Part shown: positions 1 to 20,000 of the stretch, piece after piece
Position numbering within the stretch: position 1 is the first letter of the stretch
Layout: each line of letters opens with the position of its first letter
Sequence record: DRR723986_1326
Reading direction: 5' to 3' (one strand)
Length of the DNA stretch: 20,000 nt
Translations under genes and position numbers: made by a program
The notes under the pieces: model-generated
The model's input: the letters and a program-made list of their open reading frames with translations, nothing else
Told to the model about the DNA's origin: nothing
Database searches by the model: none

Positions 1-311
1 CTTATGCAGGCAGTTTGCGAGTCTTTGAGCTAGTGCACACACCGGCACACCTGGAATCCGTTGGCGCGGCTCTATGGGCGGCGTCCGCGTTTATCATCCT
101 GGCTTTCTTGGGTGTCTACCTTGTCCAACTGCTGGCCATCAAGACACTTCCTAGCCGATCTCTCAATGCAATGTATGTTCACGCTCTCAACGGGTTTTAC
201 CTCGACACAATCGCACACCGTGTTGCTGCCAAGATCAGTGGCCATGACCTGAAGGTTGCCCCCGCTTACTCATCAAGTGTTTCGTTGACATCCCGGCGGA
301 AGCGTAGTTGA
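1..311 (+). CDS. dabB: 3' end (partial, runs off left edge) of DabB/MpsA-like NuoL/ND5-type membrane subunit of a DAB inorganic carbon transporter
   Basis: The frame is open from the window edge to TGA at 309-311. It encodes a hydrophobic helix (AALWAASAFIILAFLGVYLVQLL) followed by 'MYVHALNGFYLD', which resembles the C-terminal motif of DabB-type subunits. It lies 65 bp upstream of a DUF2309 gene, the usual dabB-dabA order. Confidence 0.8.
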   Translation, partial: YAGSLRVFELVHTPAHLESVGAALWAASAFIILAFLGVYLVQLLAIKTLPSRSLNAMYVHALNGFYLDTIAHRVAAKISGHDLKVAPAYSSSVSLTSRRKRS

Positions 312-376
312 GCCGCCCTTGATCGCCCAACACTTTGAAAGCCCAAACATCCCCCAAGTCCTAGGAAACTCTCACC

Positions 377-2959
377 ATGATCGACAAATGCTGGGAAACC
401 GAAAGCGAATCATTCACCGGCGGACAAGTGGCCACACAACCGCGCAGCTCCATTCCAACCAAGTCAGTGCCCAAACCCACGCAATCCTCGGCTGAAAAAA
501 TGAAGAAATCACTCCCGAACGCCTTCAGGGCAATCGCCCCAGCTTGGCCTCTGAAGGACATGGTGGCTGTGAATCCGTTTACGGAGTTGGCTGATCGCAA
601 CCTATTCGAGCTCCATAGCGAGCTGCGAACTGTTCGCGACACTCAGCTCCTCATGCCGCTAAGCTACTACCAGGCTCAGTTTGATCACGGTGTTCTAACG
701 AAGGCCAATATCTCACAAGCCTTAACAGAGTGTTCGAAGCAGTTTCCAAATCGTTTCGACGGTATTAGCTGGGAAGCCTTGGAGCTCACCCTTGCCGGTC
801 AGCCGAAAGACGAAGAAGGAGATCGCCAGTTTTTGACAATCGCTGAAGTTGCCGACAAGGCTGCGGAGGCGCCGCACTGGGTTGCTTTGATCATCGACGA
901 TGTGTCAAAGTACTGCGCCGCATACTTCGACGCTGGGCAAGCGATATGGAACGCCGCGCGACCTTCCACCGAAGCTACCAACAACCTATACAGCTCGTGG
1001 AAGCAACTGGCGGAGATTGATCGCCGTCTGGAGGTCTACGGTCTGCCCGGTTTTAGGAAGTTTGTTTCTGATCTTCCCGATACACCTGAGGAAGCAATCG
1101 AGGTCCTAACGAAGGCCTGCGGAGTGCCCGAAGTAGCCACCGAAAAATTCTGGCAGGCGGAGCTCTTCAGCGTTGGTGGGTGGGCTTCGTACGCGAAGTA
1201 CGTCGACCGGATCAACAAAATCGAGAACGTGGAGAATGGAGAGCTGGCGAGCCTGTTGGCAATCCGCCTAGCCTATGACTACGCACTGGTTCACCTTGGC
1301 GCGATCGAGTCCACGGCAATCGCTTGGTCTGCCAAACCGTCTCCGGATTCCGCTGACCACAGCGAAACGAAGATCTGCTACGTACTACAAACCGCTTTGG
1401 AAATCGCTTATCGATCCAAGATGCTCGACGGAGTGCTAGCCGCCCGTCCAAGTTTTCCGACCGGTACCGAGCAAGCGCCGGCGGAGTTCAATCTTGTATT
1501 TTGCATCGATGTGCGCAGCGAGATTATCCGTCGCCATCTGGAAAGCCAGTCCTCAGGACTCAATACATTCGGTTTTGCCGGATTTTTTGGAATCGCCGCT
1601 CAGCATCAATCCCCTGCATCGGCAGCAACGAACCAGTGCCCAGTTCTCCTGGACCCGGCCGTCGTCATTTCCGAATCAGGAGCGTCTGCCGACGAGCTTG
1701 GCAGGCAGCGTTCACGTGGCAAGTTCCTGCTGGAGGGCATCAAACGCCTCCAAGGAGCCGCCGTTTCTGGATTCGCATTTGTGGAATCCTGGGGCTTGAG
1801 CTACTTGCCCAGCATGATCTCGAGTGCGTTTCGGCCGAGTCTTCGGAAGGCAGGTTTAGCAGGCAAGACACCGACCAGCCAAACGACCAGTACTGGTTGC
1901 GATGTTCACCTGCAGGACCTGGAAAACAACAATCTGTCCGTTGAAGCGCAGGCCGACGTAGCCGCGAGCATCTTAAAGCACCTGGGCTTAACCAAGAACT
2001 TCGGAAAACTGTCGGTCTTCTGTGGTCATGGCAGTGCAACTGTCAACAATCCACTTCGTGCCGGACTCGACTGCGGCGCGTGCGGTGGCCACTCCGGTGA
2101 ATCGAATGCGAAGATGGCAGCAACGCTACTGAACTCGCCTGAGGTGCGTAAGATCCTGGCGACAAAGGGCTACTCGATCCCCGACGAAACGCACTTCATG
2201 GCCGCGGTGCACAACACCACGACCGACGAACTAAGATTCCTCGATACGGAGAAGGTTCCTGCAGCACTTGCAAGTGACCTGGCCGCGCTTCAAGCTCACT
2301 GCGATGCCGCGTCGGCACTTGCCAGAGCTGAGCGTGCAAAGAGATTCGTCGATTGCAGTGATGGTGAACAACTGCCTTTGAGAAGCACTGATTGGTCCGA
2401 AGTACGACCGGAATGGGGACTAGCAGGCAATGCGGCCTTTGTCGTCGCACCCCGATGGCGGACCAAACAACTCAAATTAGGCGGGCGTAGCTTCCTGCAC
2501 TCCTACGAGTACGAGCAAGACGAGGGATTCGCAACGCTTGAGCTGATTCTGACTGCGCCGATGGTGGTCACCAACTGGATCAACATGCAGTATTACGCCA
2601 GCGTCGTTGACAACAAGAACTATGGCTGCGGCAACAAGGCAATACACAACGTCGTTGGTAAGATTGGCGTCCAGGAAGGCAATGGAGGGGATCTCCGCAA
2701 CGGCCTTGCGCTGCAGTCCATCCATGACGGGGAAGGGCTACAGCACGAACCGCTTCGGTTGCAAGTGTTTGTCGAAGCACCTCGTGACGCAATCGCGGAC
2801 ATTCTGGGTCGACACGCGCATGTCGAAGACCTAGCCGCCAAGGGTTGGCTGCATTTGCATGCTATCGAATCGGGCGACTCGGAAACTTGCTACCGCTACT
2901 TGGGCAGCGGCCATTGGGATGAAATCCGCTCTCTCGAGCAAACTGCGTCGGCGAATTAG
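377..2959 (+). CDS. dabA: DabA/MpsB (DUF2309/UPF0753) beta-carbonic-anhydrase-like subunit of the DAB inorganic carbon pump
   Basis: 860-aa ORF with family motifs IAPAWPL..MVAVNPF, FCIDVRSE (C376/D378), CGHGS (H551), LDCGACGG (C566), DWSEVRPEWGLAGNA, GRSFLHSY, TAPMVVTNWINMQYYAS and HEPLRL. AGGA at 363-366 is a plausible RBS. Confidence 0.95.
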   Translation: MIDKCWETESESFTGGQVATQPRSSIPTKSVPKPTQSSAEKMKKSLPNAFRAIAPAWPLKDMVAVNPFTELADRNLFELHSELRTVRDTQLLMPLSYYQAQFDHGVLTKANISQALTECSKQFPNRFDGISWEALELTLAGQPKDEEGDRQFLTIAEVADKAAEAPHWVALIIDDVSKYCAAYFDAGQAIWNAARPSTEATNNLYSSWKQLAEIDRRLEVYGLPGFRKFVSDLPDTPEEAIEVLTKACGVPEVATEKFWQAELFSVGGWASYAKYVDRINKIENVENGELASLLAIRLAYDYALVHLGAIESTAIAWSAKPSPDSADHSETKICYVLQTALEIAYRSKMLDGVLAARPSFPTGTEQAPAEFNLVFCIDVRSEIIRRHLESQSSGLNTFGFAGFFGIAAQHQSPASAATNQCPVLLDPAVVISESGASADELGRQRSRGKFLLEGIKRLQGAAVSGFAFVESWGLSYLPSMISSAFRPSLRKAGLAGKTPTSQTTSTGCDVHLQDLENNNLSVEAQADVAASILKHLGLTKNFGKLSVFCGHGSATVNNPLRAGLDCGACGGHSGESNAKMAATLLNSPEVRKILATKGYSIPDETHFMAAVHNTTTDELRFLDTEKVPAALASDLAALQAHCDAASALARAERAKRFVDCSDGEQLPLRSTDWSEVRPEWGLAGNAAFVVAPRWRTKQLKLGGRSFLHSYEYEQDEGFATLELILTAPMVVTNWINMQYYASVVDNKNYGCGNKAIHNVVGKIGVQEGNGGDLRNGLALQSIHDGEGLQHEPLRLQVFVEAPRDAIADILGRHAHVEDLAAKGWLHLHAIESGDSETCYRYLGSGHWDEIRSLEQTASAN

Positions 2960-2983
2960 GCGCGGTAACTCGCTAGCAATTGA

Positions 2984-3015
2984 CGACGCCGAATCCATCG
3001 GCGTCGATTTCTTCT
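2984..3015 (+). terminator. Probable intrinsic terminator after dabA
   Basis: Perfect 9-bp stem CGACGCCGA (2984-2992), loop ATCCA, TCGGCGTCG (2998-3006), followed by ATTTCTTCT. It begins 24 nt after the dabA stop. Confidence 0.65.
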
Positions 3016-3409
3016 AGTCCGCTGTAAGACAAGGATGTCGCGAAACGCCGTATTGCGTATCGGCTGAATCTTGCGGCAAGCAGCAACGTCAAGTCTGGTG
3101 GCACCCGCCAGAGGTCGGCTGACCACTGGTTCGTGCTGCAACCGGCACAGGCATGGGAGCCGCCTGCGTCACGACCAATCCGAAAAATCGGCAAAGGCGG
3201 ACGACCTTGCCGCGATGCTACGAAATTCACCGAGCTGTTTATTCACGCTTCGCCGGTAAGCATAAAGTAAGCTTTAGCCCCCAATTTTCATGGGGAAGCC
3301 CCACCCCCTCAACTGGGGCTAGCCGCATGATTGCATCGTTGACAGCCAGGCGGGCTGCCAACACAAGTCCTTTGTAACCAACAACCTTTCGATGAAGAGT
3401 CTCTAGAAC

Positions 3410-5509
3410 GTGAGCAATTACGAATCGGAAGATCGACGTATTCTGGAAGCGCTGCGGCGTATCGGAATCTGTCTCGACATCACGGTCGATACCGCGGCAC
3501 TGAACCTGGGCGACGTACGCGTCGACGAAGATGACGACCGCCAAAGTCGCCTGTTGGTAGAAGGTGCGCGGCAAGCTGGCATCTACATGACACCTCAAGA
3601 GGATGTCACCAGCCAGGAAGTGTTGAGTTCACTCTCGGAAAGCTTCCCGGTTGTTATCTCACAAGAGGATGGCACCTACTGGGTCTTCGAACAACTCGTT
3701 GGCGGCAAAGTCGAAGCGAGTCGGATTACGACCCGCGTAGAAGTTCAACTGCTTACCGAATCCGACGTAGCCCGCGAACTGAGAACCGAACATCAAGCCT
3801 GGCTTTGCAAGCGGGAACTAGAGTGTTCTACGATGAGCGCCACCGACGAGCATGGTGGGCACGACGATCATCATCACGATCATCCAAAACCACTCTCCCG
3901 ATTCATCGCTCTGCTCAACCTCGACCGGCGCGATATCTGGGCTATCGTTGTGTTCGCCACAGTAGCTGGAGTCCTGGGACTCGCAACACCACTGGCGATT
4001 GAGTCGCTCGTGAACGTTGTGAGCTGGGGCACATACGTTCAACCGCTGCTTGTCTTGGGCTTGATGCTGCTGGCTTGCCTGGGCCTCGCTGGCATCCTGA
4101 AAGTTCTACAAACGGTCGTAGTCGAAATCATTCAGCGTCGACAACTCGTTCGCATTGTCGGTGACCTGGCGCATCGATTCCCACGAGCCTCGCAATCAGC
4201 CCTCAGCGGCATCTATCCTCGCGAGCTGGCGAATCGCGTGTTTGACATCATGACGATTCAGAAGGCCAGCGCGGTGTTATTGATGGATGGTGTCTCAATC
4301 ATCCTGACAACGATCATGGGCTTGCTCTTGCTTGCCTTCTATCACCCATTCCTGCTTGGATTCGATATCGCCCTGTTGTTGTGCATGCTCGGTTTTACAT
4401 GGGCACTGGGGCGTGGTGGGATCCGGACAGCGATTGCAGAATCGATCACCAAGTATCGCATTGCCCACTGGCTGCAAGACGTACTGTCAACACCGGCAGC
4501 GTTTAAGGTGAACGGAGGCGAAACGCTTGCCATCGAACGGGCCAACCGCCTAACAGCGGATTACATCAGTGCTCGACAAAAACAATTCCGTGTAGTTATT
4601 CGCCAAATTGCTTTTGCGATTGGTTTGCAAGTCGTCGCATCAACCGCACTCCTTGGGTTGGGTGGATGGTTGGTGATGAGTCAGGAACTTACGCTTGGCC
4701 AATTGGTTGCTAGTGAACTTGTTGTCACGGTTGTCGTAGGGGCATTTGCCAAGGCAGGTAAATCGCTCGAGAAATTCTACGACTTGATGGCTGGCATTGA
4801 TAAAGTTGGGCACCTGCTCGATATTCCCGTCGACCCGCGTTATGAGATCGGTGAGATTCCCGCGGAACCGGTTGACGTTCACTGGGAAACACTCAATTTC
4901 GCTTTTGCTAACACCGGCAGCTCATGCTCTGTGCCGTCGCACACGGTCGAAGCTGGCACAACACTGGCTATCATCGGAGGCGACCGCACGGGCAAGTCTC
5001 TGTTGATTCGTTCACTTGCTGGTTTGATCAAACCCAAGAACGGCATGGCTCAAATCGGTGGCTTCGACGCCCAGAGAGCATCTTTGGCTGGGTCTGGGCG
5101 ACTGGTTGGTTTGGCAAACCGTGGGGAAATTTTCCACGCCACCATTGAAGAAAACATCGACGTTGGCCGCAGCTTTGTCGGTAACAACCGTGTCCGTGAC
5201 GCTCTTGTCCAAGTCGGGCTATGGGACACGATTATGCGACTTCCAAACGGTCTACAGACTGTTTTGCAAAGCAATGGATCTCCGCTATCGAGCACGCAGA
5301 AGGCGCAGCTCATCATCGCTAGAGCGATTGCCGGCGGGCCAAGTCTGCTGCTGATCGACAGTCTGCTGGACGACCTGACTCCGGAGGTTCGCGAGTCTTT
5401 GTGGAAAACACTCGCCTGCGACGACGCGCCTTGGACCCTGATCTTGGTGACGAACCAGCGATCGATTGCCAACCTGTGTGATAACAAACTCGAACTTCAG
5501 GGAGCTTAA
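3410..5509 (+). CDS. T1SS/HlyB-like ABC exporter (N-terminal accessory domain + transmembrane domain + degenerate NBD)
   Basis: 699 aa with a GTG start. It has an ABC_membrane-type TMD (LGLATPLAIESLVN, LTLGQLVASELVV) and a C-terminal NBD with Walker A-like GGDRTGKS, IFHATIEENI, LPNGLQT, LSSTQ and LLLIDS. It is followed closely by MFP and OMF genes. Confidence 0.9.
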   Translation: MSNYESEDRRILEALRRIGICLDITVDTAALNLGDVRVDEDDDRQSRLLVEGARQAGIYMTPQEDVTSQEVLSSLSESFPVVISQEDGTYWVFEQLVGGKVEASRITTRVEVQLLTESDVARELRTEHQAWLCKRELECSTMSATDEHGGHDDHHHDHPKPLSRFIALLNLDRRDIWAIVVFATVAGVLGLATPLAIESLVNVVSWGTYVQPLLVLGLMLLACLGLAGILKVLQTVVVEIIQRRQLVRIVGDLAHRFPRASQSALSGIYPRELANRVFDIMTIQKASAVLLMDGVSIILTTIMGLLLLAFYHPFLLGFDIALLLCMLGFTWALGRGGIRTAIAESITKYRIAHWLQDVLSTPAAFKVNGGETLAIERANRLTADYISARQKQFRVVIRQIAFAIGLQVVASTALLGLGGWLVMSQELTLGQLVASELVVTVVVGAFAKAGKSLEKFYDLMAGIDKVGHLLDIPVDPRYEIGEIPAEPVDVHWETLNFAFANTGSSCSVPSHTVEAGTTLAIIGGDRTGKSLLIRSLAGLIKPKNGMAQIGGFDAQRASLAGSGRLVGLANRGEIFHATIEENIDVGRSFVGNNRVRDALVQVGLWDTIMRLPNGLQTVLQSNGSPLSSTQKAQLIIARAIAGGPSLLLIDSLLDDLTPEVRESLWKTLACDDAPWTLILVTNQRSIANLCDNKLELQGA

Positions 5510-5511
5510 AC

Positions 5512-6861
5512 ATGAGCAATCAACAAGAATTACTCTGTGCAGATTTCCCAGCTCTCCACTTGGTTCGCACGGGCCGCCGCGTTCGCCTGCTGGGCCGACT
5601 GACTTTGTACGCCTTGATCGCAACCATCATTTTGATGGTTTTCGTTCCCTGGCGGCAAACGGCGCGAGGAACAGGAACAGTCGTGGCAACAGACCCACAA
5701 CAACGCCCACAACCGGTGTTGTGCCCGGCCGAGGGTGTCATCGAGTGGACACGTGAAGACCTTCGCGAAGGGTCGTACGTCGAGAGAGGAGACTTGGTCG
5801 CTCGAATCGCGCCATTCGCAGAAGATACCATCGCGCAGCTACAACAGCAGATTGATACCGTGAAGCTAAAGAAGGAGGCGGCTGAGCTCGCACTCAAAGC
5901 GGCTGAGCTGGCACAGCAGGGTCAGAAGGAGGCAGGCCAGCGATTTAATGAGGCTCTGGACGATGAACTGGAGGCCGCGGAGAGCAAGCTGGAGCAAGTA
6001 AAGAACGATGTTCCGCAAATGCAGGCTGACTTGAATGATAAAATCAACAAGTACAACAACGCTCTCAAGGTAACCCCGCTGACGGTTGCTCGCGAGGAGT
6101 TGTTCTCGATGAGGCAAGAAGTCGATGCGGCGCAGGTGAAACTGGAGAAAGCCAACAACGCCGTACTCCAAGCTAAGGCGGATTTGAGATCCAAGCAAGC
6201 CGACGTTCAAGGCAAGCGACTCGAGATCGAAATCAAGAACAATAAAGCTGACATTGACGTCAGAGAGAAGCAAGACAAGCTGAATTCGATCGTCAACGAG
6301 ATGACAGAGTACCAAAACAAGAAGGATGGGTATCGACTCGACATCACTGCTCCGCGAAGCGGTTTTATTCAGCAATGGACCAGCGTCGTCGGTAGCGACA
6401 TTGTGAAGAAGGGCGATGCGCTCTGCATCATCGTCCCTGAGACAACCGACCTGGCGGTGGAGATGCAGGTTACTGGCAACGACATGCCGCTTATTCACGA
6501 AGGCGATCGCGTCCGACTGCAATTCGAAGGCTGGCCTGCGGTCCAGTTCGTCGGCTGGCCAAGTGTGGCTGTAGGTACGTTTGGCGGTAAAGTCAACCGC
6601 GTCTTCCCAACTGATGATAGCAAGGGGAACTTTCGGGTAGTTGTTACGCCTGACAAGCACTTTGACGGAGAGAGCGATTGGCCGGATAGCCGATACCTTC
6701 GTCAAGGCGTGAGAGCAAACGGATGGGTGCTTCTTAGACAGGTTCCACTTGGATACGAAATATGGCGTCAGTTGAACGGATTCCCACCAGTCGTTTCAGA
6801 CGAAGAGCCAGGAAAGGGCAAGGACGACAAGGGCTCGAAGGTCAAACTGCCAAAGGCCTAG
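5512..6861 (+). CDS. HlyD-family membrane fusion protein (periplasmic adaptor)
   Basis: 449 aa, starting 2 bp after the ABC stop. It has one N-terminal TM helix, lipoyl half-motifs (EGSYVERGDLV; ITAPRSG..VKKGDAL), a long coiled coil and a beta-barrel region (IHEGDRVRLQFEGWP). Confidence 0.92.
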   Translation: MSNQQELLCADFPALHLVRTGRRVRLLGRLTLYALIATIILMVFVPWRQTARGTGTVVATDPQQRPQPVLCPAEGVIEWTREDLREGSYVERGDLVARIAPFAEDTIAQLQQQIDTVKLKKEAAELALKAAELAQQGQKEAGQRFNEALDDELEAAESKLEQVKNDVPQMQADLNDKINKYNNALKVTPLTVAREELFSMRQEVDAAQVKLEKANNAVLQAKADLRSKQADVQGKRLEIEIKNNKADIDVREKQDKLNSIVNEMTEYQNKKDGYRLDITAPRSGFIQQWTSVVGSDIVKKGDALCIIVPETTDLAVEMQVTGNDMPLIHEGDRVRLQFEGWPAVQFVGWPSVAVGTFGGKVNRVFPTDDSKGNFRVVVTPDKHFDGESDWPDSRYLRQGVRANGWVLLRQVPLGYEIWRQLNGFPPVVSDEEPGKGKDDKGSKVKLPKA

Positions 6862-6869
6862 AGAACCGC

Positions 6870-8990
6870 TTGCTTCGTAGAGGATTGCTAGCAAAGTGGT
6901 TGCGATCGAGCTCCCAATTTGTAGCTCCTCACCTGATTGGCGCTACGTTGCTGGTCGCTGGCTCAACCGGCTGTGCCCAATTGGACTCGTTCCGTAAACA
7001 CAGGGTTACACCGAAAGAGACCACTCAACTTTCGGCCCCTGAGCCCAAGTCCTCGCGGAAATCATCCGTGCAGCAGGAGGAGCGTCTATCCAACGTTCCT
7101 GTTGTTCCAACCAGTTTCCACGCGCCAATCGATCCAGCGCAGAATCAAACGGGCCAAGCTACAGCCGCTCAGACGCCAAACGCGCAGCCAACGTTAACGC
7201 AAACGACAACCGCGCCCACGGTTGCGCCGCAGGGTCAGCAGTCAAGCCGAGTTGCCGCGCAGCCGGTTGGCTATGCAAGACCAGTTGCGCAAGAGGCACC
7301 CGCGACGCTGATCGAGGGACAGCCATCCCAGTTGCCAAATGTCATGCCACCAGAGATTCAGGTGGCCCCAGGATCACCGGCAGTGCGGTCTGATCAGGTC
7401 GCCGCTCCTCAAAACGGCCCACTCCCAGCGCCAGGCGCGAGCGAACCGCAGGCAGGCGGTGAACAAGGAACAGCCCCGGAGATGGGTGAAACAACCGGTT
7501 ATGCGGGCGACTCTTTCCTCTCCCTCGCTGATGTCATTGCCAGTGTCTATCAAGCCTTTCCGATGATCAACGCGGCGAGGCAAGAGCGGCAAATCGCTGG
7601 CGGTCAACTCCAGCAAGCCTGGGGTGCGTACGATACGAAACTTCAAGGCTATACGCTCAACGAACCCCTGGGCTTTTACAGAAACTTTCGTCAGGGCCTT
7701 GGCGTAGCACGACAAACATGGTGGGGCGGTTATGTATCGGCCGGTTATCGCCTCGGTCGTGGTGATTTCCAACCTTGGTACAAAGAACGTGAGACCAATG
7801 AAGGCGGCGAGTTCAAAATAGCTTTTGCCCAACCGCTGCTCCGCGGAAGAGCGATCGATCCACAGCGAGTCGCAGTCTTCCAAGCTTCGTTGGCAACGCG
7901 TGCAGCGGATCCCATCGTACAGCAGGCAATTCTGGACACATCTCAAGAAGCTGCTACGACCTATTGGAAGTGGGTTGCTGCTGGCGCTACTCTCCAAGCG
8001 CAACGCGAGCTACTTGAACTTGCTACTACACGTGGCGACGGGCTGGAGGCAGACTATAAGGCCAATCGGATCCCAGTAGTCGACTTAGTTTACAACCGCA
8101 AACTGATCGCCGACCGAACGACCTCTCAACTCAAGGCGCTCCAGAAGTTTCGAGAGGCCTCCGCAAAACTGTCCCTCTTTCTTCGTGACGAAATGGGCAA
8201 TCCGCTCAACGCTGATATTGATTGGGTTCCCCAACACTTTCCTGAGATTCAATCCTATACACCCAGGGATTTCGCTAGCGACTTCTCCGATGCACTTCGA
8301 CGCCGTCCAGAGCCGACGCTCCTACGTTTCGAAATGCAACAAGTGCAACTGGAGCGGCAGCTAGCGCGGAATGACTTACTGCCAAATCTCGACCTCGTCG
8401 CAGAAACATCACAGGACACCGGTCTGAGAGCTTCCAGCTCGAATGACAAAGGGCAATTCGAAATCGTAGTTGGTTTGCAAGGAGAAGTGCCGCTACAACG
8501 GAACAAGGCACAAGGTAAGCAAATCGAAACGCTAGCAAAGATTCAGCAGATATCGAACAAAATCGAGTATACGGAGAATAAGATCGGAGCCGAACTACAG
8601 CGAGCTCGCGCCGCCTTAGATCTGGCCGAACAAATCGTTGAGCAAGCGGAAGAGGGGCTACTGCAGTCTATCCGCGCCCTCTCTATCTACAACAAAGTGT
8701 TCGAAATCGGTGGCAAAGCCAACCTTATTCTCATCAACATTCTTGAAACAGAAGTGAATGAGAGTGAGCTTAAGCTTGTCGAAGCCCAACAGAATTGGTT
8801 TATTGCTCTTGTCGACTTCCAGGCCGTGCTCGGGTTAAACCCACTGGACCAAGCGATGACGGTCTCGCAACTTCCAGAATCGCAGCGCGCTGGTCCAGGA
8901 TTCCTGCCTGAACCTGAAATGGTTTCACCAGAAGAACTGGAGCGCGAAATGGAGCTTCTAGGAAACCCTAGTCTGCAACCACAACCGTAA
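6870..8990 (+). CDS. TolC/OMF-family outer membrane channel, predicted lipoprotein
   Basis: OEP-type repeats (LSLADVIASVYQAFP, FAQPLLRGRAID, LARNDLLPNLDL, EVPLQRNKAQG). A hydrophobic signal ends in a lipobox-like STG-C (Cys codon 6972-6974). The start is uncertain: in-frame TTG at 6870, 6885 or 6900 fits the signal peptide better than the ATG at 6762, which overlaps the MFP gene by 100 nt. Confidence 0.85.
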   Translation: MLRRGLLAKWLRSSSQFVAPHLIGATLLVAGSTGCAQLDSFRKHRVTPKETTQLSAPEPKSSRKSSVQQEERLSNVPVVPTSFHAPIDPAQNQTGQATAAQTPNAQPTLTQTTTAPTVAPQGQQSSRVAAQPVGYARPVAQEAPATLIEGQPSQLPNVMPPEIQVAPGSPAVRSDQVAAPQNGPLPAPGASEPQAGGEQGTAPEMGETTGYAGDSFLSLADVIASVYQAFPMINAARQERQIAGGQLQQAWGAYDTKLQGYTLNEPLGFYRNFRQGLGVARQTWWGGYVSAGYRLGRGDFQPWYKERETNEGGEFKIAFAQPLLRGRAIDPQRVAVFQASLATRAADPIVQQAILDTSQEAATTYWKWVAAGATLQAQRELLELATTRGDGLEADYKANRIPVVDLVYNRKLIADRTTSQLKALQKFREASAKLSLFLRDEMGNPLNADIDWVPQHFPEIQSYTPRDFASDFSDALRRRPEPTLLRFEMQQVQLERQLARNDLLPNLDLVAETSQDTGLRASSSNDKGQFEIVVGLQGEVPLQRNKAQGKQIETLAKIQQISNKIEYTENKIGAELQRARAALDLAEQIVEQAEEGLLQSIRALSIYNKVFEIGGKANLILINILETEVNESELKLVEAQQNWFIALVDFQAVLGLNPLDQAMTVSQLPESQRAGPGFLPEPEMVSPEELEREMELLGNPSLQPQP

Positions 8991-9030: not shown

Positions 9031-11334
9031 TCACGGCAGCACCTGAGCGTCGTCGTCTCCCAGCACTCGCGAGAGCTGCTGCATGGTGCGATCGAGCTTT
9101 TGGTAAGCGTAGAACGATGCGATGAGTCCGACGCCGGTAATGACCACTCCGGTCAGAATCAGGTTCTCATGTGCCTGATCGCTTAGGACGATCAAGCCCA
9201 GTGCCGCCAACGGAATCATTGCCGCGGAAAGCAGGTACCAACGCATCTGTCGACGGATCGCAGCACAGCGACCACCGAATCCGGCGTCGTCCATCGTCGG
9301 TGCAATGACCGCAGGGTAGTACACGACGATCGCAAGAAGCGTCATCCCGAAATATGGGTAGATCCACGCCACGCCTCCACAAAGCACAAGGGAGACGAAG
9401 AAGTGGAACGCGTCATCAAGATCAAACTCTGAGTGCATTGTGGCAAACGAAGTCGCAAACACAACTCCGGAAACAGTCCATAGGATGCCACAGATTAGCG
9501 TGGCATAATTTCCGATCTGCCACAGTCGCCTCAGTTCATGCGTTGAGACTGCGTCGCCGGCGCGTGCTCGGCGGACGATCTTGACAATCGGCCAAGTAAT
9601 CCACAAGAACAACAAGCCGCCCAGAGGGAACACGATTGCGTTGACCAGATTTGCGACGTATCGGAAGTCTTCCTCAATCCCCTCAATTTGCAACGGAACC
9701 TGGCTGGCCTCCGAGGCGATCGCGGACGAACTCTTCACCGAGGATTGAAATGCGGGATCAATGTCCTTCATGCGTTGGTGATTGTAGTAGTAGTTGAAGA
9801 CGCTGGCCGCCGTGTTGGGGCCGAAAATAAGCGCGGCAGCAACCAACAGCACCGGCAGACACAACAGCCAGCCCGCGAGACTGTTCTTTGCTGGCTGAAA
9901 GCACTCGGCCAGATCGGGGTAGAACGCGAGCTTCAGTCGTGCCGCAGCCTCTTTACCACTCCGCGGCCGCCGCTCAGGATCGACGTTCAAGAGGTCCCGA
10001 ACAACCTTCTCGAGTGCTCGTTCAGTGGCCGTCTCAGCAGGGAACTCCGGCACGAACTCCTTTTCTCGAACATCACGTTGCAACTTAACAGCCTCAGTCC
10101 AACTAGCCGCCAACTCGGATAGCTGCCAGGGGCGTTTTCCTTGCCAGAGTTCCCACAGGACAATCCCCAACGCGTACAAATCGCTCCGACCGTCCAGTTG
10201 ATCTGCGGAAAGGCTGTCCAGTGGGTCGGCAACCTGCAGTTGCTCGGGGGACATATACGCCAGAGAACCTCCAAAGTAGGCTGCCGCTCCAGCACGACCG
10301 CCCAGTCCACTGCAACTTACGTTGAAGTCGGCCAGTTTCGGAATCGCTTCACCAGACAACAGAATGTTCGCGGGCTTTACATCGCGATGCAAAACACCTT
10401 TCGTGTCGGCATAGCCCAGCCCCTCGGCCAATTGAATTCCGATCCAGCTAACGGCTTCGGCCCATGACATCTCTGCGATGGCAGCTCGTATTGCGGATTG
10501 CTCGGGCACTGACTGGTTTGCGGCAAGCAGACTGCGATCAATCGCCTCAAGCACGTGCTTGCCAGCCCACAACTTGCGAGGCAAAGCGCGAACATGCTTG
10601 ATCGTGTCGGCAACTGTACCGCCGGGTAGATACTGCATGTACAGCAAGATGGTTGGCGGCTGATGAATCTCTCGTTGGTCAAAGACTCGCACCACATTCG
10701 GATGATCCAACTGCGAAAGTGCTTGCGGCTCCGAACTTCCTCGCGAGGTAGCCTTTAGCGCAACGAGTCGCTGCATCGATTCTTGGCGAGCGAGATAGAC
10801 CCGTGCAAAGGCGCCTTGCCCCAGTTGCTTAAGGATATGGAAATCGTCGACTTGCTCACCAACAGGAAGTTCGGGAACTCGCGACGCAACTCCGGTAAAC
10901 TCTTGTGTTTCGCCACCAGCAAGCCACTTTCCAATCGTAGCAGCCAAGTCTGGAAAACGCTGTCGGTAGTCTTCCCAAGAAGGTCGCTGCCCGGCCGCGC
11001 GGCGCAGTTGCACTTCTTCCAGCACTAGATCGAACGGCACCAACTCACTTGGAAGCAACTCAGCAACGGCTGGCCAGTAGAATTCCAGCGTTCTCGCTTG
11101 GCCGTGTTCGTGGGCTGTGGCCAAGTCGAACTTCATCAGTTCAACGAGGATTAGTCGCGTTGATTCTGCCGACGCGGTGGGGATGAGTTCAATTAATTGT
11201 GTTGCCGAATCAACCGGAGATAGGCCACTCAGTTGATCCATGCACATTTCTAGGAGCGCAAACGACGCTTCGATAGTCTCGCCGTCGAAGTCTTGATCCT
11301 GATCTTGGTCCTGCTTACGGGGCTGTTCAGACAT
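9031..11334 (-). CDS. Hanks-type Ser/Thr protein kinase with C-terminal multi-pass membrane domain
   Basis: 767 aa with LGQGAFARVY (P-loop), VALK, HPNVVRV, HRDVKPANILL, ADFN (DFG position), GGSLAYMSPEQ, SDLYALGIVLWEL and PERRP. About 6 hydrophobic segments lie in the C-terminal ~280 aa. Confidence 0.95.
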   Translation of the reverse strand: MSEQPRKQDQDQDQDFDGETIEASFALLEMCMDQLSGLSPVDSATQLIELIPTASAESTRLILVELMKFDLATAHEHGQARTLEFYWPAVAELLPSELVPFDLVLEEVQLRRAAGQRPSWEDYRQRFPDLAATIGKWLAGGETQEFTGVASRVPELPVGEQVDDFHILKQLGQGAFARVYLARQESMQRLVALKATSRGSSEPQALSQLDHPNVVRVFDQREIHQPPTILLYMQYLPGGTVADTIKHVRALPRKLWAGKHVLEAIDRSLLAANQSVPEQSAIRAAIAEMSWAEAVSWIGIQLAEGLGYADTKGVLHRDVKPANILLSGEAIPKLADFNVSCSGLGGRAGAAAYFGGSLAYMSPEQLQVADPLDSLSADQLDGRSDLYALGIVLWELWQGKRPWQLSELAASWTEAVKLQRDVREKEFVPEFPAETATERALEKVVRDLLNVDPERRPRSGKEAAARLKLAFYPDLAECFQPAKNSLAGWLLCLPVLLVAAALIFGPNTAASVFNYYYNHQRMKDIDPAFQSSVKSSSAIASEASQVPLQIEGIEEDFRYVANLVNAIVFPLGGLLFLWITWPIVKIVRRARAGDAVSTHELRRLWQIGNYATLICGILWTVSGVVFATSFATMHSEFDLDDAFHFFVSLVLCGGVAWIYPYFGMTLLAIVVYYPAVIAPTMDDAGFGGRCAAIRRQMRWYLLSAAMIPLAALGLIVLSDQAHENLILTGVVITGVGLIASFYAYQKLDRTMQQLSRVLGDDDAQVLP

Positions 11335-11916
11335 AAATCATGTTGTGGCGTTTGGATGGATCGGGCGTGACTACCAACAAGCATTGCTCTGGAGATGCAA
11401 TTACATTGTTGCACGCGACGGAGTGAGGAGACAGGTACGACTGCAAGACAAATCGTTTGTAGGGCAGGGCACTTGCCGCTTCGCCAACCCAGATTGGACG
11501 CTCCGTGCAGCTAGACAGGCCGTTATGCCGCGGTCGGAGAACCATATGCTTGGCGGATAGCCGCCTCTTGCGACTATGCCTTAGCCCCTCCGCACTTCTG
11601 GGATTGCCGCCAATGCGTTAAAATGACGCCTCAACTGCACCGCCTGCGGGCTGGAATGAATTCTTGCGATTTCAACTTTCTCAAGGATGAGCGCGGACGA
11701 AATCTATTGGTCGTCGTTTGATCGGCTCGCTGAACCACTATCTAGTCGTGGTCTACATCGTGCTGACCAGACGGCGATCTCTGCATTTGACACCACCGGG
11801 AAGCTGCACCACGAAGTGAGACAGTTGCCTCGGTGGCGTTCGTTTTGTGCCGATACAATCGTGACGTAAAACCGGTTTACGTCGATCGAGCAACTAGCAG
11901 CAAAAAAGGATGAGCC

Positions 11917-12405
11917 ATGGCCGAGATGGTCCCAATGACTCGCGAAAAGTACAACGAGATTCGCGCCGAAGTGGAGCAACTTGAGAACATCGAGATGCCC
12001 AAAGTTGCGGAGAAGATCGCCGAAGCCCGCGCCGAAGGCGACTTGAAAGAGAACGCCGAATATCACGCCCAGCGTGAAAATCAGGGCATGCTGCAGGCGA
12101 AGATCAACCAGAAAAAGCAGATGATTGCCAACGCGTACATCATCGACCCTAGCAAACTGTCCAAGGACGAAGTTGGTTTGCTGGCAACGGTAGTGGTCAA
12201 AGATCTAGACTACAACGACGAGGAAGAATTCACGCTCGTCGGCGCTGGCGATGAAGACTACGACACGGGCAAGATCCTATCGACCAGTCCAATCGGGGCA
12301 GCGTTGATGGGTACCAAGATCGGCGACAAAGTCGAGGTCGAAGTGCCCAAAGGCACCTTGAAGTTCGAGATCTTGGAAATCAAATACGACTTCGGCGATG
12401 AGTAA
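11917..12405 (+). CDS. greA: Transcription elongation factor GreA
   Basis: 162 aa with the signature [18 protein letters not shown] and C-terminal [39 protein letters not shown] lies upstream of the ATG. Confidence 0.97.
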
Positions 12406-12413
12406 AAACGCGG

Positions 12414-13112
12414 ATGAGTAGCAACGAGACAGACAGTGCGGCCGAAACGGACAACGCGGAAGAACACAAAGAACCGTCGCTCGGCCCCGCGTGCCTTGTC
12501 ATTGGTATCCTTGGCCTAGCATCCTTCTGCGCGTTTTGCGGAATTGGAAGCTGGATCATGTTCTATGACCAGTATCCGATGGCCGAGGACGGAATCCGGG
12601 AACAATTGATTCCCTGGGTTAAGCAAAGTCAGTTGGCCACCGACGACAAGAACTCAATCGTAAAGCAACTCAACGACCTCATTCCAAAACTCCAGCAGAA
12701 AACGATCAACAAGCAGCAACTACTACGTCTGCGAAACTGCTTAACTGATAATCCAGTGCTCCTGTGGGGTGGAGTCCAATCGATCGTTGCACAATCGGAA
12801 ACATCCGAGCTGTCAGACGTCGAAAAACAGACCCTTGAACGATTGACTCAGCGGTTGATGCGAATGGCAACGGATCGTGAGCTGAGCCGCAATGACATCG
12901 AATTTGCTTTGCAGCCCTGTGCAAAGGTTCGTGAAGACCAAATGGGCCTCGAAGTGCTGCCTGATTTGTCGGCCGATCAGATCCGTGACTTCATGACTCG
13001 AAGCGAACAGTTGCTCAACAAGAGCCAAATCCCCAACCAGGCCTACGACAAGACGCCTGCGGAAGCGTTCGAGATCCTGATCGATGCAGCTCTAGACCTG
13101 AAGACTCTCTAG
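12414..13112 (+). CDS. Hypothetical protein with single N-terminal membrane anchor and helical soluble domain
   Basis: 232-aa ORF 8 bp downstream of greA. An acidic N-terminus is followed by a hydrophobic Cys-containing segment (GPACLVIGILGLASFCAFCGIGSWIMF) and then amphipathic helices. Confidence 0.8.
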   Translation: MSSNETDSAAETDNAEEHKEPSLGPACLVIGILGLASFCAFCGIGSWIMFYDQYPMAEDGIREQLIPWVKQSQLATDDKNSIVKQLNDLIPKLQQKTINKQQLLRLRNCLTDNPVLLWGGVQSIVAQSETSELSDVEKQTLERLTQRLMRMATDRELSRNDIEFALQPCAKVREDQMGLEVLPDLSADQIRDFMTRSEQLLNKSQIPNQAYDKTPAEAFEILIDAALDLKTL

Positions 13113-13403
13113 TCTTTCTCGGACAAAAGGCGATACCATAGGCCATCGTGCGGGCGTTCTTGCAGGCATTGCGAGCGACGCTTTGGTGGCACAAGGTTAT
13201 CCCTCAAACAACAGCGTCATCGCTCGAACACTAGCCGGGGCCGCAAACAGGCTCGCAGCAGCCGCAGTGTTCGTCTTTCCTTGCCCCCCATCTGACGCCA
13301 CAGTTTCACTCCCGATCTCCCAGGCTACAATGGTGCTCGGTTGGCGCTTCTTTCTCCGACCACCATACCAATTCTGCTTCGCTCAAGCTCGATGTGAACA
13401 CCG

Positions 13404-15095
13404 ATGGCTTTCCTCTCAGCAATTAGCGGCTCGAACTTTGGCAGACGTTTCGACTTGAAGAAGCCTGAAACGGTTCTGGGTCGGCACCCCGAGTGTGACG
13501 TCACCATCGACGTTGGCGCGGTCAGCCGACAACATGCCCGCATCCTCAAACGCGATGAGAATCAGTTTGAAATCGAGGATCTCAAGAGCCGCAATAACAC
13601 GTTCTTGAACGGGCAGAAAATCACGTCGCCGGTTCCATTGCATGATGGTGACCTGATACGAATTTGCGATGTCGAGTATTCCTTTCATGTCGAAGACGGC
13701 ACGGGGCTGTTGTCAGGCAATACCATCGCGGGCGCCGATGGCCAGTCGTCGGTCAGCGTACTGCTTGTCGACGACAGCGGCGAAGATGAGTCATCCAGAG
13801 CCGTTAGCAGCAAACTTGATATCCGAGGAAGCCAACATGGATCGCAACTAACCAGTTCATCTGAGGCTCGACTACACGCAGTGTTGCAGATTGCTCAAAA
13901 TCTTGGGCGGGCAATCCAATTGGAGGAAGTGCTGCCGAAAGTGCTCGACACGCTCTTCAAAATCTTCTTGCAGGCCGATCGCGCCTTCGTTGTCCTCAAG
14001 GAGGGTGAAGAGCTGATTCCCCGATGGGTGAAGACTAGGCAACCAGATCAATCGGAGGCGTTTCGAATTAGCCGAACAGTTATGAACGAAGTCATGGAGG
14101 CGAAGCAGGCGATCATATCGCTCAACGCGTCTACAGACGAACGATTCGGCATGGCAAACAGCATCTCCGATTTCCGCATTCGTTCTATCATCGTCGCACC
14201 GCTGCTTGATTCCGATGACAATGCGCTAGGTGCGATTCAGATCGACACCATCAATCCGAAACGGCATTTCAATGACGAGGACCTTGAGATCCTAGCTGGT
14301 GTAGCGACTCAAGCGGGCATCGCCATCGAGAATGCGCAAATGCACGACCAACTGGTTCAGCAAGAACGCGTAAACAAGGATTTGCAATTAGCACGCAACG
14401 TCCAAGAAGCTTTTTTGCCCGTTGATGCACCCGAGCTGGAGAACTACTCGTTCTTCCATTTCTATCGTCCCGCTGACCAGATCGGCGGCGACTACTTCGA
14501 TTACATCCGCCTGGCTGATGGACGAATTGGCATTGTAACCGCGGACGTTTCCGGTCACGGCATTGCGGCGGCCATGTTGATGGCAAAGCTCTCTGCAGAA
14601 ACGCGGTTTCTGCTTGCCAGCCATACGGACACAGCCGAGGCGATAACAAACCTCAACAAACGATTCTGGGCGCTGGACGTGAAGATGTTCGCCACCTTCT
14701 TATGTCTCGTCCTGGACCCGGAATCTGGAACGGTGGAGATGGTCAACGCTGGACATATGTTACCGATGTGGATCGATAGCGATGGACACATCCAAGAACC
14801 CGGAGACTCAATCACCGGCGTTCCAATTGGTGTCCTACCAGATTTTGAGTATCAACAAGCGTCAATCCAGCTCAAGCCAGGTGACCGACTGTTGCTATTC
14901 ACCGACGGAATTCACGAAGCCAACTCAGCCTCGGGAGAGCTGTACGGACTTGAGCGACTGCGGTGTATCGCCTCGCAGCATCCTGACGACGTTAAAGAGT
15001 TCGGTGAAACGGTCATCACCGACGTCAATCGATTTGCAGACGGCGTAGAACAATCCGACGACATGTGCTTGGTTGTTCTATCGAGAGAGGACTAA
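13404..15095 (+). CDS. FHA-GAF-SpoIIE (PP2C/RsbU-type) protein-serine phosphatase
   Basis: 563 aa. FHA motifs LGRHPECD, VSRQHA and DLKSRNNTFLNG; GAF region IRSIIVAPL..GAIQID..FNDEDLEIL..AGIAIENA; PP2C motifs IGGDYFD, ADVSGHG, NAGH, LFTDG and SDDMC. Confidence 0.95.
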   Translation: MAFLSAISGSNFGRRFDLKKPETVLGRHPECDVTIDVGAVSRQHARILKRDENQFEIEDLKSRNNTFLNGQKITSPVPLHDGDLIRICDVEYSFHVEDGTGLLSGNTIAGADGQSSVSVLLVDDSGEDESSRAVSSKLDIRGSQHGSQLTSSSEARLHAVLQIAQNLGRAIQLEEVLPKVLDTLFKIFLQADRAFVVLKEGEELIPRWVKTRQPDQSEAFRISRTVMNEVMEAKQAIISLNASTDERFGMANSISDFRIRSIIVAPLLDSDDNALGAIQIDTINPKRHFNDEDLEILAGVATQAGIAIENAQMHDQLVQQERVNKDLQLARNVQEAFLPVDAPELENYSFFHFYRPADQIGGDYFDYIRLADGRIGIVTADVSGHGIAAAMLMAKLSAETRFLLASHTDTAEAITNLNKRFWALDVKMFATFLCLVLDPESGTVEMVNAGHMLPMWIDSDGHIQEPGDSITGVPIGVLPDFEYQQASIQLKPGDRLLLFTDGIHEANSASGELYGLERLRCIASQHPDDVKEFGETVITDVNRFADGVEQSDDMCLVVLSRED

Positions 15096-15107
15096 TTCCC
15101 ATTCGCC

Positions 15108-15965
15108 CTATCCCAGGGGCAACTCATCCGCATCGCCGCGTGGACGAACGAATCGATAACGTACGATGCAGTAGATTGCATTCACGAGATCTCGCCATCC
15201 GATCTTCTTACCTTCATCGCGGCTTCGGCACGAGTAACCGACGCCAACCTCTTCAATCTTGAGCTTCAGTTGAGCACACTTGGCAGTGATCTCCGGCTCG
15301 AATCCGAACCGAGATTGCTCGATACTGACCTGCTGCAGAACCCTCCGATCAAACGCTTTGTAACACGTTTCCATGTCGGTAAGCTGGTAGCCGGTGAGTT
15401 TGTTGGACAGGAAGGTGAGTGCCCAATTTCCAAACCTGTGCAATGCTGATGGATCTTGCTCAGGAGTTTCCAAATAACGCGACCCGTAGCAGACGCTGGT
15501 TGAACCATCTTGAATGGGCGCGATGACCTTCATGATATCGGTCGGGTTGTATTCCAGATCTGCATCTTGAACTATCACGATATCGCCGCGCGCTCTCTCG
15601 AATCCTGTCTGCAAGGCCGCTCCCTTGCCACGGTTTTGCTCGTGATGCACGACCTCGACTTCGTCGTACTTAGCCAGTTCGTCGACCCGCTGTGGGGTCG
15701 CGTCAGTGCTACCGTCATCGACCACGATGATTTGCTTGTCGATGGGCAACTGGCGAACTTTTTCGACGATTTCGAATACCGTTTCCGGCTCGTTGTAGAC
15801 GGGAATGACTACAGTCAAAGGAAACGTATCGGGCCGCAGAGCGCTACGAACCAAGTCATCGGCGTACTCCAACACGGAATCAAACCGCTCGACAATCTCG
15901 CTAATGTCTGCATCGCGAGCAGGTGCTGAGGTGGATACCGGTTTGTTGGAAATCACTGAATTCAT
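15108..15965 (-). CDS. Glycosyltransferase family 2 (DPM1/polyprenol-phosphate glycosyltransferase-like)
   Basis: 285 aa with VVIPVYNE, IIVVDDGSTD, NRGKGAAL, QDADLEY (DxD), YGSRY, TDMETCYK and GFEPEITAK. The exact start is uncertain. Confidence 0.93.
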   Translation of the reverse strand: MNSVISNKPVSTSAPARDADISEIVERFDSVLEYADDLVRSALRPDTFPLTVVIPVYNEPETVFEIVEKVRQLPIDKQIIVVDDGSTDATPQRVDELAKYDEVEVVHHEQNRGKGAALQTGFERARGDIVIVQDADLEYNPTDIMKVIAPIQDGSTSVCYGSRYLETPEQDPSALHRFGNWALTFLSNKLTGYQLTDMETCYKAFDRRVLQQVSIEQSRFGFEPEITAKCAQLKLKIEEVGVGYSCRSRDEGKKIGWRDLVNAIYCIVRYRFVRPRGDADELPLG

Positions 15966-16179
15966 GAGTAGACCCGCTGGGCTTGCGCGAAGTAGATGGG
16001 TACAAGTTTTCGTCGCGAAAGAGTAGCATTCCGGTTGTGCGATATTGAGAACTTTATCGGCCTGCGGTTACTGTTACGGCCAAAGACCTTGTCGGACGGC
16101 CACCCAGGCTCGCCGATCGCTACAATCCGCACGCTACACTGACGACTTTGGTACTCAAACTGAGCACCCGCGAGAGCCT

Positions 16180-18105: not shown

Positions 18106-18190
18106 GCGTTTGAGCCCCTTTTTTCGGGCGGCGGGTTGCCGTCTAATAGTGACGGCTCGCTACTTTCATGCTTTCTCGCTTCTCTCTGTT

Positions 18191-18841
18191 ATGCAATCCA
18201 TCGAACTCGCCATTGCCTTCGTGCCCGTTGCGATTTATCTCATCTTGATCGGCGGACTGCGAATGCGCAATCGTCCGCTTGTCACGTCTGGATGGCGCGA
18301 CACGCTAACGCTTGGCATCGCCTGCTTCGGTTTGGTTGCTATCGGCCCAATGCAATTGTTCTTTCCCGCTCAAGCTGCAGCTCGTTGGCACGGATGGGTT
18401 TGGCTGGCACTCCTGGCCCTGTACGTTCTAGCGCTGCTAATGCTACTGCTTAGCTGCAAACCGCGCTTGATTGCATACGGTCTAAGCCCTACACAGTTCC
18501 GAGAGCTTCTCGAGAAAGCCGCCAACACGGTCGATGAACAGTCGCACTGGGATGGCGACGTGCTCAACGTCCCGGGAGCTGGCATGCAGTTAGCCGTCGA
18601 ACCGTCGGGCGCTGCTCGCGTGCAACAAGTTGTCCATTTTGGAATCCTAAGAGATTTTCAGCAGTGGGTTACGCTTGAACGCGCCTTTGTAGGACTTGCT
18701 CGCCAAGAGAGGTGCCCGAGAAGCATTGCTGGGTTCCCACTGATGATGGCTGGTGCGTTCTTGCTGACGATTGCGATTATGCCAACGGTCAATGACCCGG
18801 CCGGAGCACTTGACCAACTACAGCAGTTCATCAACCGGTAA
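18191..18841 (+). CDS. Hypothetical integral membrane protein (about 4 TM)
   Basis: Three N-terminal hydrophobic helices, a soluble loop and a C-terminal helix. The ATG at 18191 is preferred over the TTG at 18110. Confidence 0.75.
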   Translation: MQSIELAIAFVPVAIYLILIGGLRMRNRPLVTSGWRDTLTLGIACFGLVAIGPMQLFFPAQAAARWHGWVWLALLALYVLALLMLLLSCKPRLIAYGLSPTQFRELLEKAANTVDEQSHWDGDVLNVPGAGMQLAVEPSGAARVQQVVHFGILRDFQQWVTLERAFVGLARQERCPRSIAGFPLMMAGAFLLTIAIMPTVNDPAGALDQLQQFINR

Positions 18842-18914
18842 ACTCACAGGAAGCGGCGAAGACAAAACTTGGCCTAGCGATCCTCAGCAGACTGATCTTG
18901 CCGGAAACTGACAC

Positions 18915-19865: not shown

Positions 19866-19887
19866 TCAGATCGTCTGATCAGCCGCT
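19850..19887. terminator. Long perfect hairpin over the permease stop codon; probable (bi)directional terminator
   Basis: AGCGGCTGATCAGA (19857-19870), loop TCG, TCTGATCAGCCGCT (19874-19887) form a perfect 14-bp stem. On the minus strand it is followed by TGTTTTT. Confidence 0.6.
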
Positions 19888-20000
19888 GAGAACAAGTTAC
19901 CGAGCTGTTGGGCTAGAGCGCTTCCAGTTCGAATGTAGCGTTTCTGCGCCAATTTGATTCAGCTATTCATTTGGGGTAGCACGCTATACGTCCGTGCGAC

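Follow-up and report, generated by a model that had tools for sequence, protein, structure and literature searches.

The window analyzed here, 20,000 nucleotides of sequence record DRR723986_1326, carries, next to the inorganic-carbon genes dabB and dabA, an operon for an ATP-binding cassette (ABC) protein, a membrane-fusion protein (MFP), and a TolC-type outer-membrane factor (OMF). We find that this ABC protein belongs to a large family in which the ATPase site is degenerate, and that genes of the family lie beside bicarbonate genes in several independent lineages more often than expected by chance. Judging from sequence comparisons, the system may be a small-solute conduit that works independently of ATP hydrolysis within a bicarbonate-supply regulon, and we give this reading as a whole a probability of about 0.5. 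Of its parts, loss of the ATPase is very probable, and membership in a bicarbonate-supply regulon is likely. An earlier, sequence-only reading of the window had suggested that the exporter is an accessory to low-CO2 physiology by virtue of its DAB neighbor; this idea pointed in the right direction, was drawn too narrowly, and missed the degenerate ATPase site and with it the probably dead motor.

A secretion-type exporter with a degenerate ATPase site

The exporter genes and the parts of the ABC protein discussed below are as follows:

3410-5509, + strand: ABC protein of HlyB/PCAT fold, 699 aa (PF00664 and PF00005)
3851-3883, + strand: His-rich linker of the ABC protein, before its membrane domain
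4697-4783, + strand: transmembrane helix 6 (TM6), with the family-conserved polar stripe G430-Q431...E436...K448, K451, E454, Y457, D458 (conservation over 143 sequences)
4976-5458, + strand: degenerate ATPase motifs of the ABC protein (motif alignment)
5512-6861, + strand: MFP, 449 aa (PF13437; TIGR01843 below cut-off)
6870-8990, + strand: TolC-type OMF (PF02321; longest open reading frame [ORF] from 6762)

With an ABC exporter, a HlyD-type MFP, and a TolC-type OMF, the operon has the architecture of a type 1 secretion system (T1SS). The ABC protein consists of an N-terminal C39-like domain without the catalytic motif, the His-rich linker, a conserved transmembrane domain (TMD), and a degenerate nucleotide-binding domain (NBD). 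Its best fold matches are HlyB/D 8dck and 7sgr (16-18% identity), from an AlphaFold model of modest quality (pLDDT 68, pTM 0.45) used for fold identity only. Among NCBIfam models, the LssB T1SS family matches best, far under its cut-off, and all models of this kind stay below theirs (bits/cut-off: TIGR03375, 135/693; TIGR01846, 108/726; TIGR01842, 111/510; TIGR01843, 75/209).

The closest genome that we found is an uncultured Pirellulaceae metagenome-assembled genome (locus L001, genome G001) with identical gene order, whose exporter proteins are 61-91% identical to those of the window. The window DNA is from a Pirellulaceae-type genome, and its host is a planctomycete.

In the window protein the P-loop, GGDRTGKS, is the sole ATPase motif left. 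The signature reads LSSTQ, the Q-loop Gln is lost, Walker B (D650-S651) has no Glu, and the switch (T681-N682) has no His, so that the set of residues expected of an active T1SS ATPase (Walker-B Glu, switch His, Q-loop Gln, and LSGGQ) is not present. In HlyB the catalytic dyad is E631 and H662 (PMC8277102). The degeneration extends across the family: Among the 132 proteins with letters at all motif columns, out of 147 family ABCs aligned, 12 have Walker-B DE, 11 the switch His, five the Q-loop Gln, and one SGG. The P-loop GK[ST] is kept in 91 of the 132, and the Lys, DE, and His occur together in just two. Two ordinary ABCs in the same alignment carry all catalytic motifs, as does another ABC (708 aa) in G001.

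There is one ABC gene per operon (split in two loci). If its product is a homodimer, neither composite site would work, and pairing with another ABC would not restore activity, because the signature that the family protein would contribute is lost as well. No close paralogue, and no second ABC that might supply a consensus site, was found in five genomes, in which the next-best ABC scores 120-133 bits against ~1150-1220, about a tenth. This is not a gene in decay: Window and L001 are 93% identical in the NBD, with dN of 0.053 and dS of ~1.9 (near saturation), as tight as GreA, which places this domain under strong purifying selection.

Within the ABC protein, conservation is highest in the membrane domain, where Q284, K285, S345, K348, H312, E436, K448, K451, Y457, and D458 are invariant or nearly so over the 143 sequences compared. 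The basic residues comprise the invariant membrane lysines K285 and K348 and the near-invariant K448, K451, R244, R248, and R276. E436 stands where an aligned ordinary ABC has a hydrophobic residue. From helical spacing alone, we infer that the polar stripe of TM6 may face the pore.

A classical T1SS is unlikely, as the sequence-only reading had suggested, given the family-wide degeneration of the ATPase site and the lack, also pointed out there, of a cargo ORF in or beside the exporter. None of 183 exporter loci, the window included, has an ORF with RTX repeats. It could still be argued that the exporter secretes a protein or peptide encoded elsewhere, such as an extracellular carbonic anhydrase or an adhesin, with the help of a distant ABC partner or a residual ATPase. 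The best folds (HlyB/HlyD and PCAT1), the C39-like domain, the LssB match, the widely kept P-loop, and the 708-aa ABC with intact motifs in G001 all fit such a role, and the cargo search covered the loci, not the window's own genome. Nevertheless, the Glu and His of the HlyB dyad are missing in about 90% of the family, and the lost signature would impair a partner's site too, for which no close paralogue was seen. The C39 peptidase motif (Gln...Cys-Gly) occurs in one of 143 family members and not in the window, and the N-terminal domain is missing altogether in 30 of 134. Together with the lack of RTX ORFs, this makes protein or peptide secretion improbable.

The MFP carries the family-specific C-terminal motifs FEGWPAVQF and EIWRQLNGF. 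For the OMF, a TTG at 6870-6900 is a likelier start than 6762; the protein has a signal peptide, a P/A/Q/T-rich linker of ~180 aa, and two OEP repeats, and L001 lacks the lipobox-like Cys that it has at 6972. Elsewhere in the family, P0162 is an ABC-MFP fusion of 1202 aa, and several MFPs (P0167, P0187, P0192, P0215, P0218, P0224, and P0248) have N-terminal extensions of 300-500 aa without a Pfam match.

Distribution of the family

At 50% identity the family falls into 400 clusters (E up to 1e-30), and at least 6,564 of 8,000 proteins scored belong to it. Those members that are named belong to Planctomycetia, Phycisphaerae, Myxococcota, Bacteroidota, and Sphingomonadales; viral contigs gave no homologue. 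Of 121 Pirellulaceae genomes sampled, 65 carry the exporter, almost always in one copy, and so do 18 of 201 genomes across Planctomycetota. Outside this phylum the sampling is thin, consisting of 13 plasmid loci and metagenome contigs. In one record labeled as a plasmid (L022, NZ_CP081938.1), genes for ribosomal proteins and mur genes surround the exporter, which suggests a chromosome.

Linkage to bicarbonate genes

As dissolved inorganic carbon (DIC) genes we counted DAB, PEP carboxylase (ppc), PurE/PurK, carbonic anhydrase, SbtA, and SulP. PEP carboxylase uses bicarbonate. PurK uses HCO3-, and purK mutants need high CO2 (PMC10880623). Loci were annotated by BLAST against Pfam-checked seed proteins, and the linkage counts are therefore lower bounds. 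The main set of 177 loci excludes the window, L001, the near-duplicates L010, L012, L074, and L142, a metagenome locus lacking an MFP call, and five family hits without fetched regions.

A DIC gene lies within 5 kb of the exporter in 27 of the 177 loci, and in 26 of the 126 that have at least 3 kb of upstream DNA. The partners within this distance are PEP carboxylase (14 loci), PurK and PurE (six each), DAB (five), carbonic anhydrase (three), and SbtA and SulP (two each). Linked loci make up 14 of 60 in randomly chosen Pirellulaceae, four of 13 among close homologues, seven of 77 in metagenomes, and two of 10 on plasmids. The distance gradient is steep: In 18 loci the nearest DIC gene is no more than 1 kb away (289 kb surveyed), and in one it is more than 5 kb away (602 kb).

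Counts within 10 kb likewise exceed expectation. Among genomes holding both genes (G001 excluded), ppc is this close to the exporter in nine of 37, where 0.15 are expected, and dabA in three of 52, where 0.29 are expected. Twelve of 66 family MFPs lie within 10 kb of dabA or ppc, compared with one of 150 adaptors of resistance-nodulation-division (RND) pumps among the matches listed (of 465). In the same 20 genomes, which were chosen for long contigs after the coordinates were seen, the proportions are six of 19 for family adaptors and one of 150 for RND adaptors among the matches listed (P = 6e-6). The single RND positive is a pump directly downstream of dabBA (L300:5665-15937, genome G243).

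Genome G296 has a single run of a small winged helix-turn-helix (wHTH) gene, dabB, dabA, ppc, ABC, and MFP. Linkage recurs in hosts other than planctomycetes. On a Sphingobium plasmid, dabA lies 43 bp before the ABC gene, with DUF2490 and carbonic anhydrase genes close by; in Persicobacter, ppc is 2.5 kb upstream of the exporter. On a FastTree phylogeny of 143 ABCs, 23 changes are required to explain the 28 linked and 94 unlinked rows (21 rows with short flanks are uncounted, and FastTree warns of long branches for L111/L115 and L022). The link is thus scattered and was not inherited once; the tree cannot tell gain of the link from its loss. At the level of whole Pirellulaceae genomes, dabA is found in 52 of 64 exporter-bearing and 21 of 56 exporter-free genomes, and ppc in 37 of 64 and 12 of 56, respectively, both comparisons being uncorrected for kinship or completeness.

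Linkage to DIC genes is thus above chance, and it occurs in independent lineages. The tie to low-CO2 genes that had been proposed for the exporter holds in this general form and fails for DAB in particular: The link is to bicarbonate genes in general. A DAB-specific partnership was rejected, with DAB adjacent in only five of the 177 other loci and DabA unlinked in G003, G004, and G005. The pattern fits shared regulation and not a complex between DAB and the exporter.

That the dab adjacency is coincidental, the exporter being an envelope or efflux module of general use and unconnected with inorganic carbon, agrees with the hairpin and the separate promoter-like block between dabA and the ABC gene (see below), with the majority of loci that have no DIC gene nearby, and with close relatives that are unlinked (L014, L147, and L150). 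We consider this very unlikely given the enrichment over both the analytic expectation and the RND control, the distance gradient, the six unrelated partner families, the 23 changes on the tree, and the common operator described in the next section.

Neither PEP carboxylase nor PurEK, the partners found most often, is a Zn enzyme. This bears on another proposal, that the exporter is a conduit for Zn/Mn homeostasis in the service of two Zn enzymes, DabA and carbonic anhydrase. The metal conduit named by the sequence-only reading found little support: The window protein has a His-rich linker, as do 53 of 134 members, and ArsR-family regulators adjoin seven of the 177 loci and TerC/Alx one, but the linker is variable and absent from most members, and the invariant membrane residues are mainly Lys, Arg, and Gln. 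We give a metal role little credence.

A common regulator and operator

A small MarR-like wHTH gene lies within 5 kb of the exporter in 22 of the 177 loci. In the sample of 121 genomes, 20 of its 40 copies adjoin dabA and eight adjoin the exporter, five of the latter without dabA or ppc. From 25 exporter loci we learned an operator palindrome, ACGA(A/C)W-N4-W(T/G)TCGT (score 196, compared with 41 for shuffled sequences). It reaches threshold at 13 of 16 held-out, exporter-free dab/purEK promoter regions with the wHTH gene, at none of five such regions without it, and in 0.4% of random windows; the held-out regions were set from gene positions after the wHTH neighbor counts were known. At the level of the family, dabBA, purEK, and the exporter thus share a predicted regulator and operator in Pirellulaceae.

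The wHTH family (L009:7308-7685 and homologues; A5) is unnamed and has a WTFLTNH motif. On plasmids of Actinobacteria and Deinococcus its genes stand beside those for carbonic anhydrase, SbtA, TerC, DUF6671, or isocitrate dehydrogenase. Among eight loci viewed on plasmids of monoderms, the wHTH gene is next to carbonic anhydrase, SbtA, DabB, or isocitrate dehydrogenase in four and next to TerC in four. The family is a candidate CO2/bicarbonate sensor.

In Pirellulaceae we also observe a recurrent operon in which the wHTH gene accompanies dabB-dabA-cysD-cysNC-carbonic anhydrase-purE-purK. It is whole in L303:1617-11947 and, by gene sizes, in L310:1793-12134, and partial in L305:140-8922 and L314:1866-10413. 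Genes for sulfate activation thus stand within a bicarbonate operon (L303 type). A small HPF/RaiA-like ORF without a Pfam match at the cut-off used (L079:1405-1752, L122:2030-2374, L321:2050-2469) lies between an NhaR-type LysR gene and exporter or DIC genes in about 15 loci.

NhaR and Alx are alkali-responsive. The exporter could accordingly be an alkaline-pH/Na+ stress module that moves OH-, carbonate, organic anions, or cations outward; the sole reason for DIC genes to share its regulators would then be the scarcity of CO2 at high pH. Four of six adjacent LysRs tested score above the NhaR cut-off, 24 of the 68 NhaR-type genes adjoin the exporter, TerC or cation/H+ antiporter genes adjoin the exporter in L122, L146, L179, and L200, the wHTH homologues stand by TerC in half of the monoderm plasmid loci, and efflux of anions is downhill and needs no ATP. 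On the other hand, DIC neighbors are found in 27 loci and antiporters or TerC in a handful, and the chief partner of the wHTH gene is dabBA, often together with purEK and carbonic anhydrase. We regard such a module as unlikely, though as the most probable of the alternatives.

The region between dabA and the exporter

Upstream of the exporter, the window has the following features:

3-311, + strand: C-terminal end of dabB (membrane subunit of Mrp/complex-I type), an open-ended ORF of 102 aa; the gene start lies left of the window
377-2959, + strand: dabA, 860 aa, DAB2-length (PF10070 full-length, E = 2.6e-238)
2984-3006 (with tail to 3016), + strand: 9-bp hairpin with a short, weak T-rich tail, terminator-like (z = -2.2)
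3241-3317, + strand: conserved non-coding block upstream of the ABC gene, near-identical in L001, where the remainder of the gap is not

The gene order, all on the + strand, is the dabB end, dabA, the gap, ABC, MFP, and OMF, and 450 bp separate the dabA stop from the ABC start, in agreement with the co-orientation and close spacing first noted for the two units. The ORF at 3-311 has no Pfam match on its own; we take it for a DabB fragment because the full DabB of L001 (564 aa, PF00361 and PF00662) matches it at its C terminus with 79% identity. The dabA product has a full-length PF10070 domain, Cys-x-Asp/His/Cys ligands, and a PF00361 gene alongside. Its putative Zn ligands by motif position, C376, D378, H551, and C566, match in spacing C351, D353, H524, and C539 of Halothiobacillus DabA2, four residues that are needed there (10.1101/476713). 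The window dabA is thus a typical member of DAB2 length in which the set of four putative Zn ligands is complete. G001 also encodes another DAB, which is longer and is accompanied by two DabB-like genes, a SulP gene, and, upstream, a porin gene of the OprP type (L062:4457-13559, G001:C135).

A terminator had been placed between the two units. The hairpin at 2984-3006 is indeed there, but such sites occur at chance frequency (15 in 12 kb compared with 13.9 expected) and this one is missing from L001, and we rejected it as a conserved terminator. Apart from the hairpin, folding in the gap is not above chance, and no Rfam match for an RNA element was found there. The conserved block at 3241-3317 is probably the exporter's own promoter/operator. 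Since the exporter probably has its own promoter, the dab adjacency would reflect shared regulation and not a physical complex. Inside the block, at 3263-3276, lies a palindrome, TAAAG-N4-CTTTA, which is present at that locus only among 258 fetched loci and has one exact 19-mer match in G001. It was rejected as a regulon-wide site, as no second good copy was seen in five genomes.

Proposed mechanism and its weaknesses

On the reading that we prefer, the ABC-MFP-TolC complex would be a T1SS-shaped channel spanning the envelope, its ABC protein having no ATP-hydrolyzing residues. Energy or gating might come from an ion gradient through the conserved E436 and H312, or from nucleotide binding without hydrolysis, for which the P-loop kept in 91 of 132 members would serve. 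The substrate is predicted to be anionic because K285, K348, K448, K451, R244, R248, and R276 are invariant or near-invariant; a small anion would pass along this Lys/Arg-rich path, with bicarbonate or a related anion the first candidate. The exporter would be switched on at low CO2 together with the bicarbonate-supply genes, the regulon consisting of DAB, PEP carboxylase, PurEK, carbonic anhydrase, SbtA, and SulP. Its fullest form, in which the family (Planctomycetota, Myxococcota, Bacteroidota, and Sphingomonadales) would be an ion-gradient-driven or nucleotide-gated bicarbonate/anion channel over two membranes, under a CO2-responsive wHTH regulator, is tentative and well short of even odds, and that bicarbonate itself is the substrate is rather doubtful.

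Several observations weigh against the conduit-and-regulon reading. Of the 177 loci, 150 lack a DIC gene within 5 kb, and in 113 of these a wHTH or LysR neighbor is missing as well. None of the 17 wider Planctomycetota loci is linked, and, with three added plasmid loci that proved negative, only two of 13 plasmid loci are. The commonest exporter neighbor is the NhaR-type LysR, of which 24 of 68 copies are by the exporter and just nine of 68 near dabA or ppc. The window, its intergenic region included, has no wHTH or NhaR site (best scores 6.5 and 7.3); its dabB promoter lies outside the window. G001 has no wHTH match; its NhaR gene and HPF-like ORF are on a different contig, and its dabB is preceded by an NhaR-type site (score 11.5, reached by 0.55% of random windows). 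A scan of 10 genomes with the operator pattern gave mostly chance matches in coding regions and no clear unlinked DIC target among 50 loci examined; the regulon is therefore shown locally only, and a genome-wide wHTH regulon was rejected. L070 and L100 are the two scored members that keep the Walker-A Lys, Walker-B Glu, and switch His. Finally, an open anion path over both membranes would drain bicarbonate from an inside-negative cell. Since an ungated path leaks bicarbonate, import would need coupling.

Other genes of the window

A convergent Ser/Thr kinase gene lies 3′ of the OMF gene. The genes at 9031-19865 are ordinary ones, for a membrane Ser/Thr kinase, GreA, an FHA-GAF-SpoIIE phosphatase, a GT2 glycosyltransferase, a CPA1-TrkA antiporter, and a sugar-ABC permease whose ATPase is not in the window. 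A weak Rfam Xoo2 match (29 bits, cut-off 45) at 19852-19951 falls on a palindrome after the permease gene and is probably a terminator or due to chance.

Comparison with known systems

Tripartite transporters are taught as ABC systems driven by ATP or as RND or major facilitator superfamily (MFS) systems driven by ion gradients. If the preferred reading is true, a large conserved ABC-fold family without an ATP-splitting site needs another energy source or is a gated channel. In its fullest form, the reading would add a new way of energizing tripartite transporters and supply a part so far missing from the inorganic-carbon toolkit of bacteria. The predicted wHTH regulator and operator would offer a handle on how heterotrophs sense CO2/bicarbonate shortage. 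Genes of the family are now annotated as parts of toxin-secretion or multidrug-efflux systems, probably wrongly for thousands of records. In the literature searched, with most subscription papers and all supplements outside its scope, we found no description of the family or of its DIC link, PMC11934965 yielded nothing pertinent, and the DAB preprint and the review of the DIC toolkit make no mention of TolC.

Among known systems, the T1SSs (HlyB-HlyD-TolC and PrtD/LipB/LssB) are like the window in having an ABC protein (C39-like domain, TMD of the type IV exporter fold, and NBD), an MFP, and an OMF in one operon. They differ from the family in the catalytic Glu, switch His, Q-loop Gln, and LSGGQ, which the family has lost, and in their RTX cargo, which is not found near the 183 loci; the window protein, in turn, falls below every NCBIfam cut-off, is 16-18% identical to HlyB, and has a conserved intramembrane Glu and Lys. 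The PCAT bacteriocin exporters (PCAT1, NHLP, and ComA) share the N-terminal C39 fold and the overall fold, whereas the family has no C39 motif in all but one of 143 members, no leader-peptide cargo that we could see, an apparently dead ATPase, and in 30 of 134 cases no N-terminal domain.

TM287/288 and TmrAB are asymmetric heterodimeric exporters with a degenerate nucleotide site, as described in PMC8277102. They keep one working site, built from two genes; the family has one gene, in which the Walker B/His side and the signature side are both degenerate. CFTR and SUR, an anion channel and a regulator, set a precedent in that their ABC exporter fold serves without pumping. CFTR passes bicarbonate. 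Unlike the family, these proteins are eukaryotic, act in a single membrane, and have one site that still hydrolyzes. On the features tested, the family is thus predicted to work like neither a T1SS nor a PCAT exporter, though it is built of their parts.

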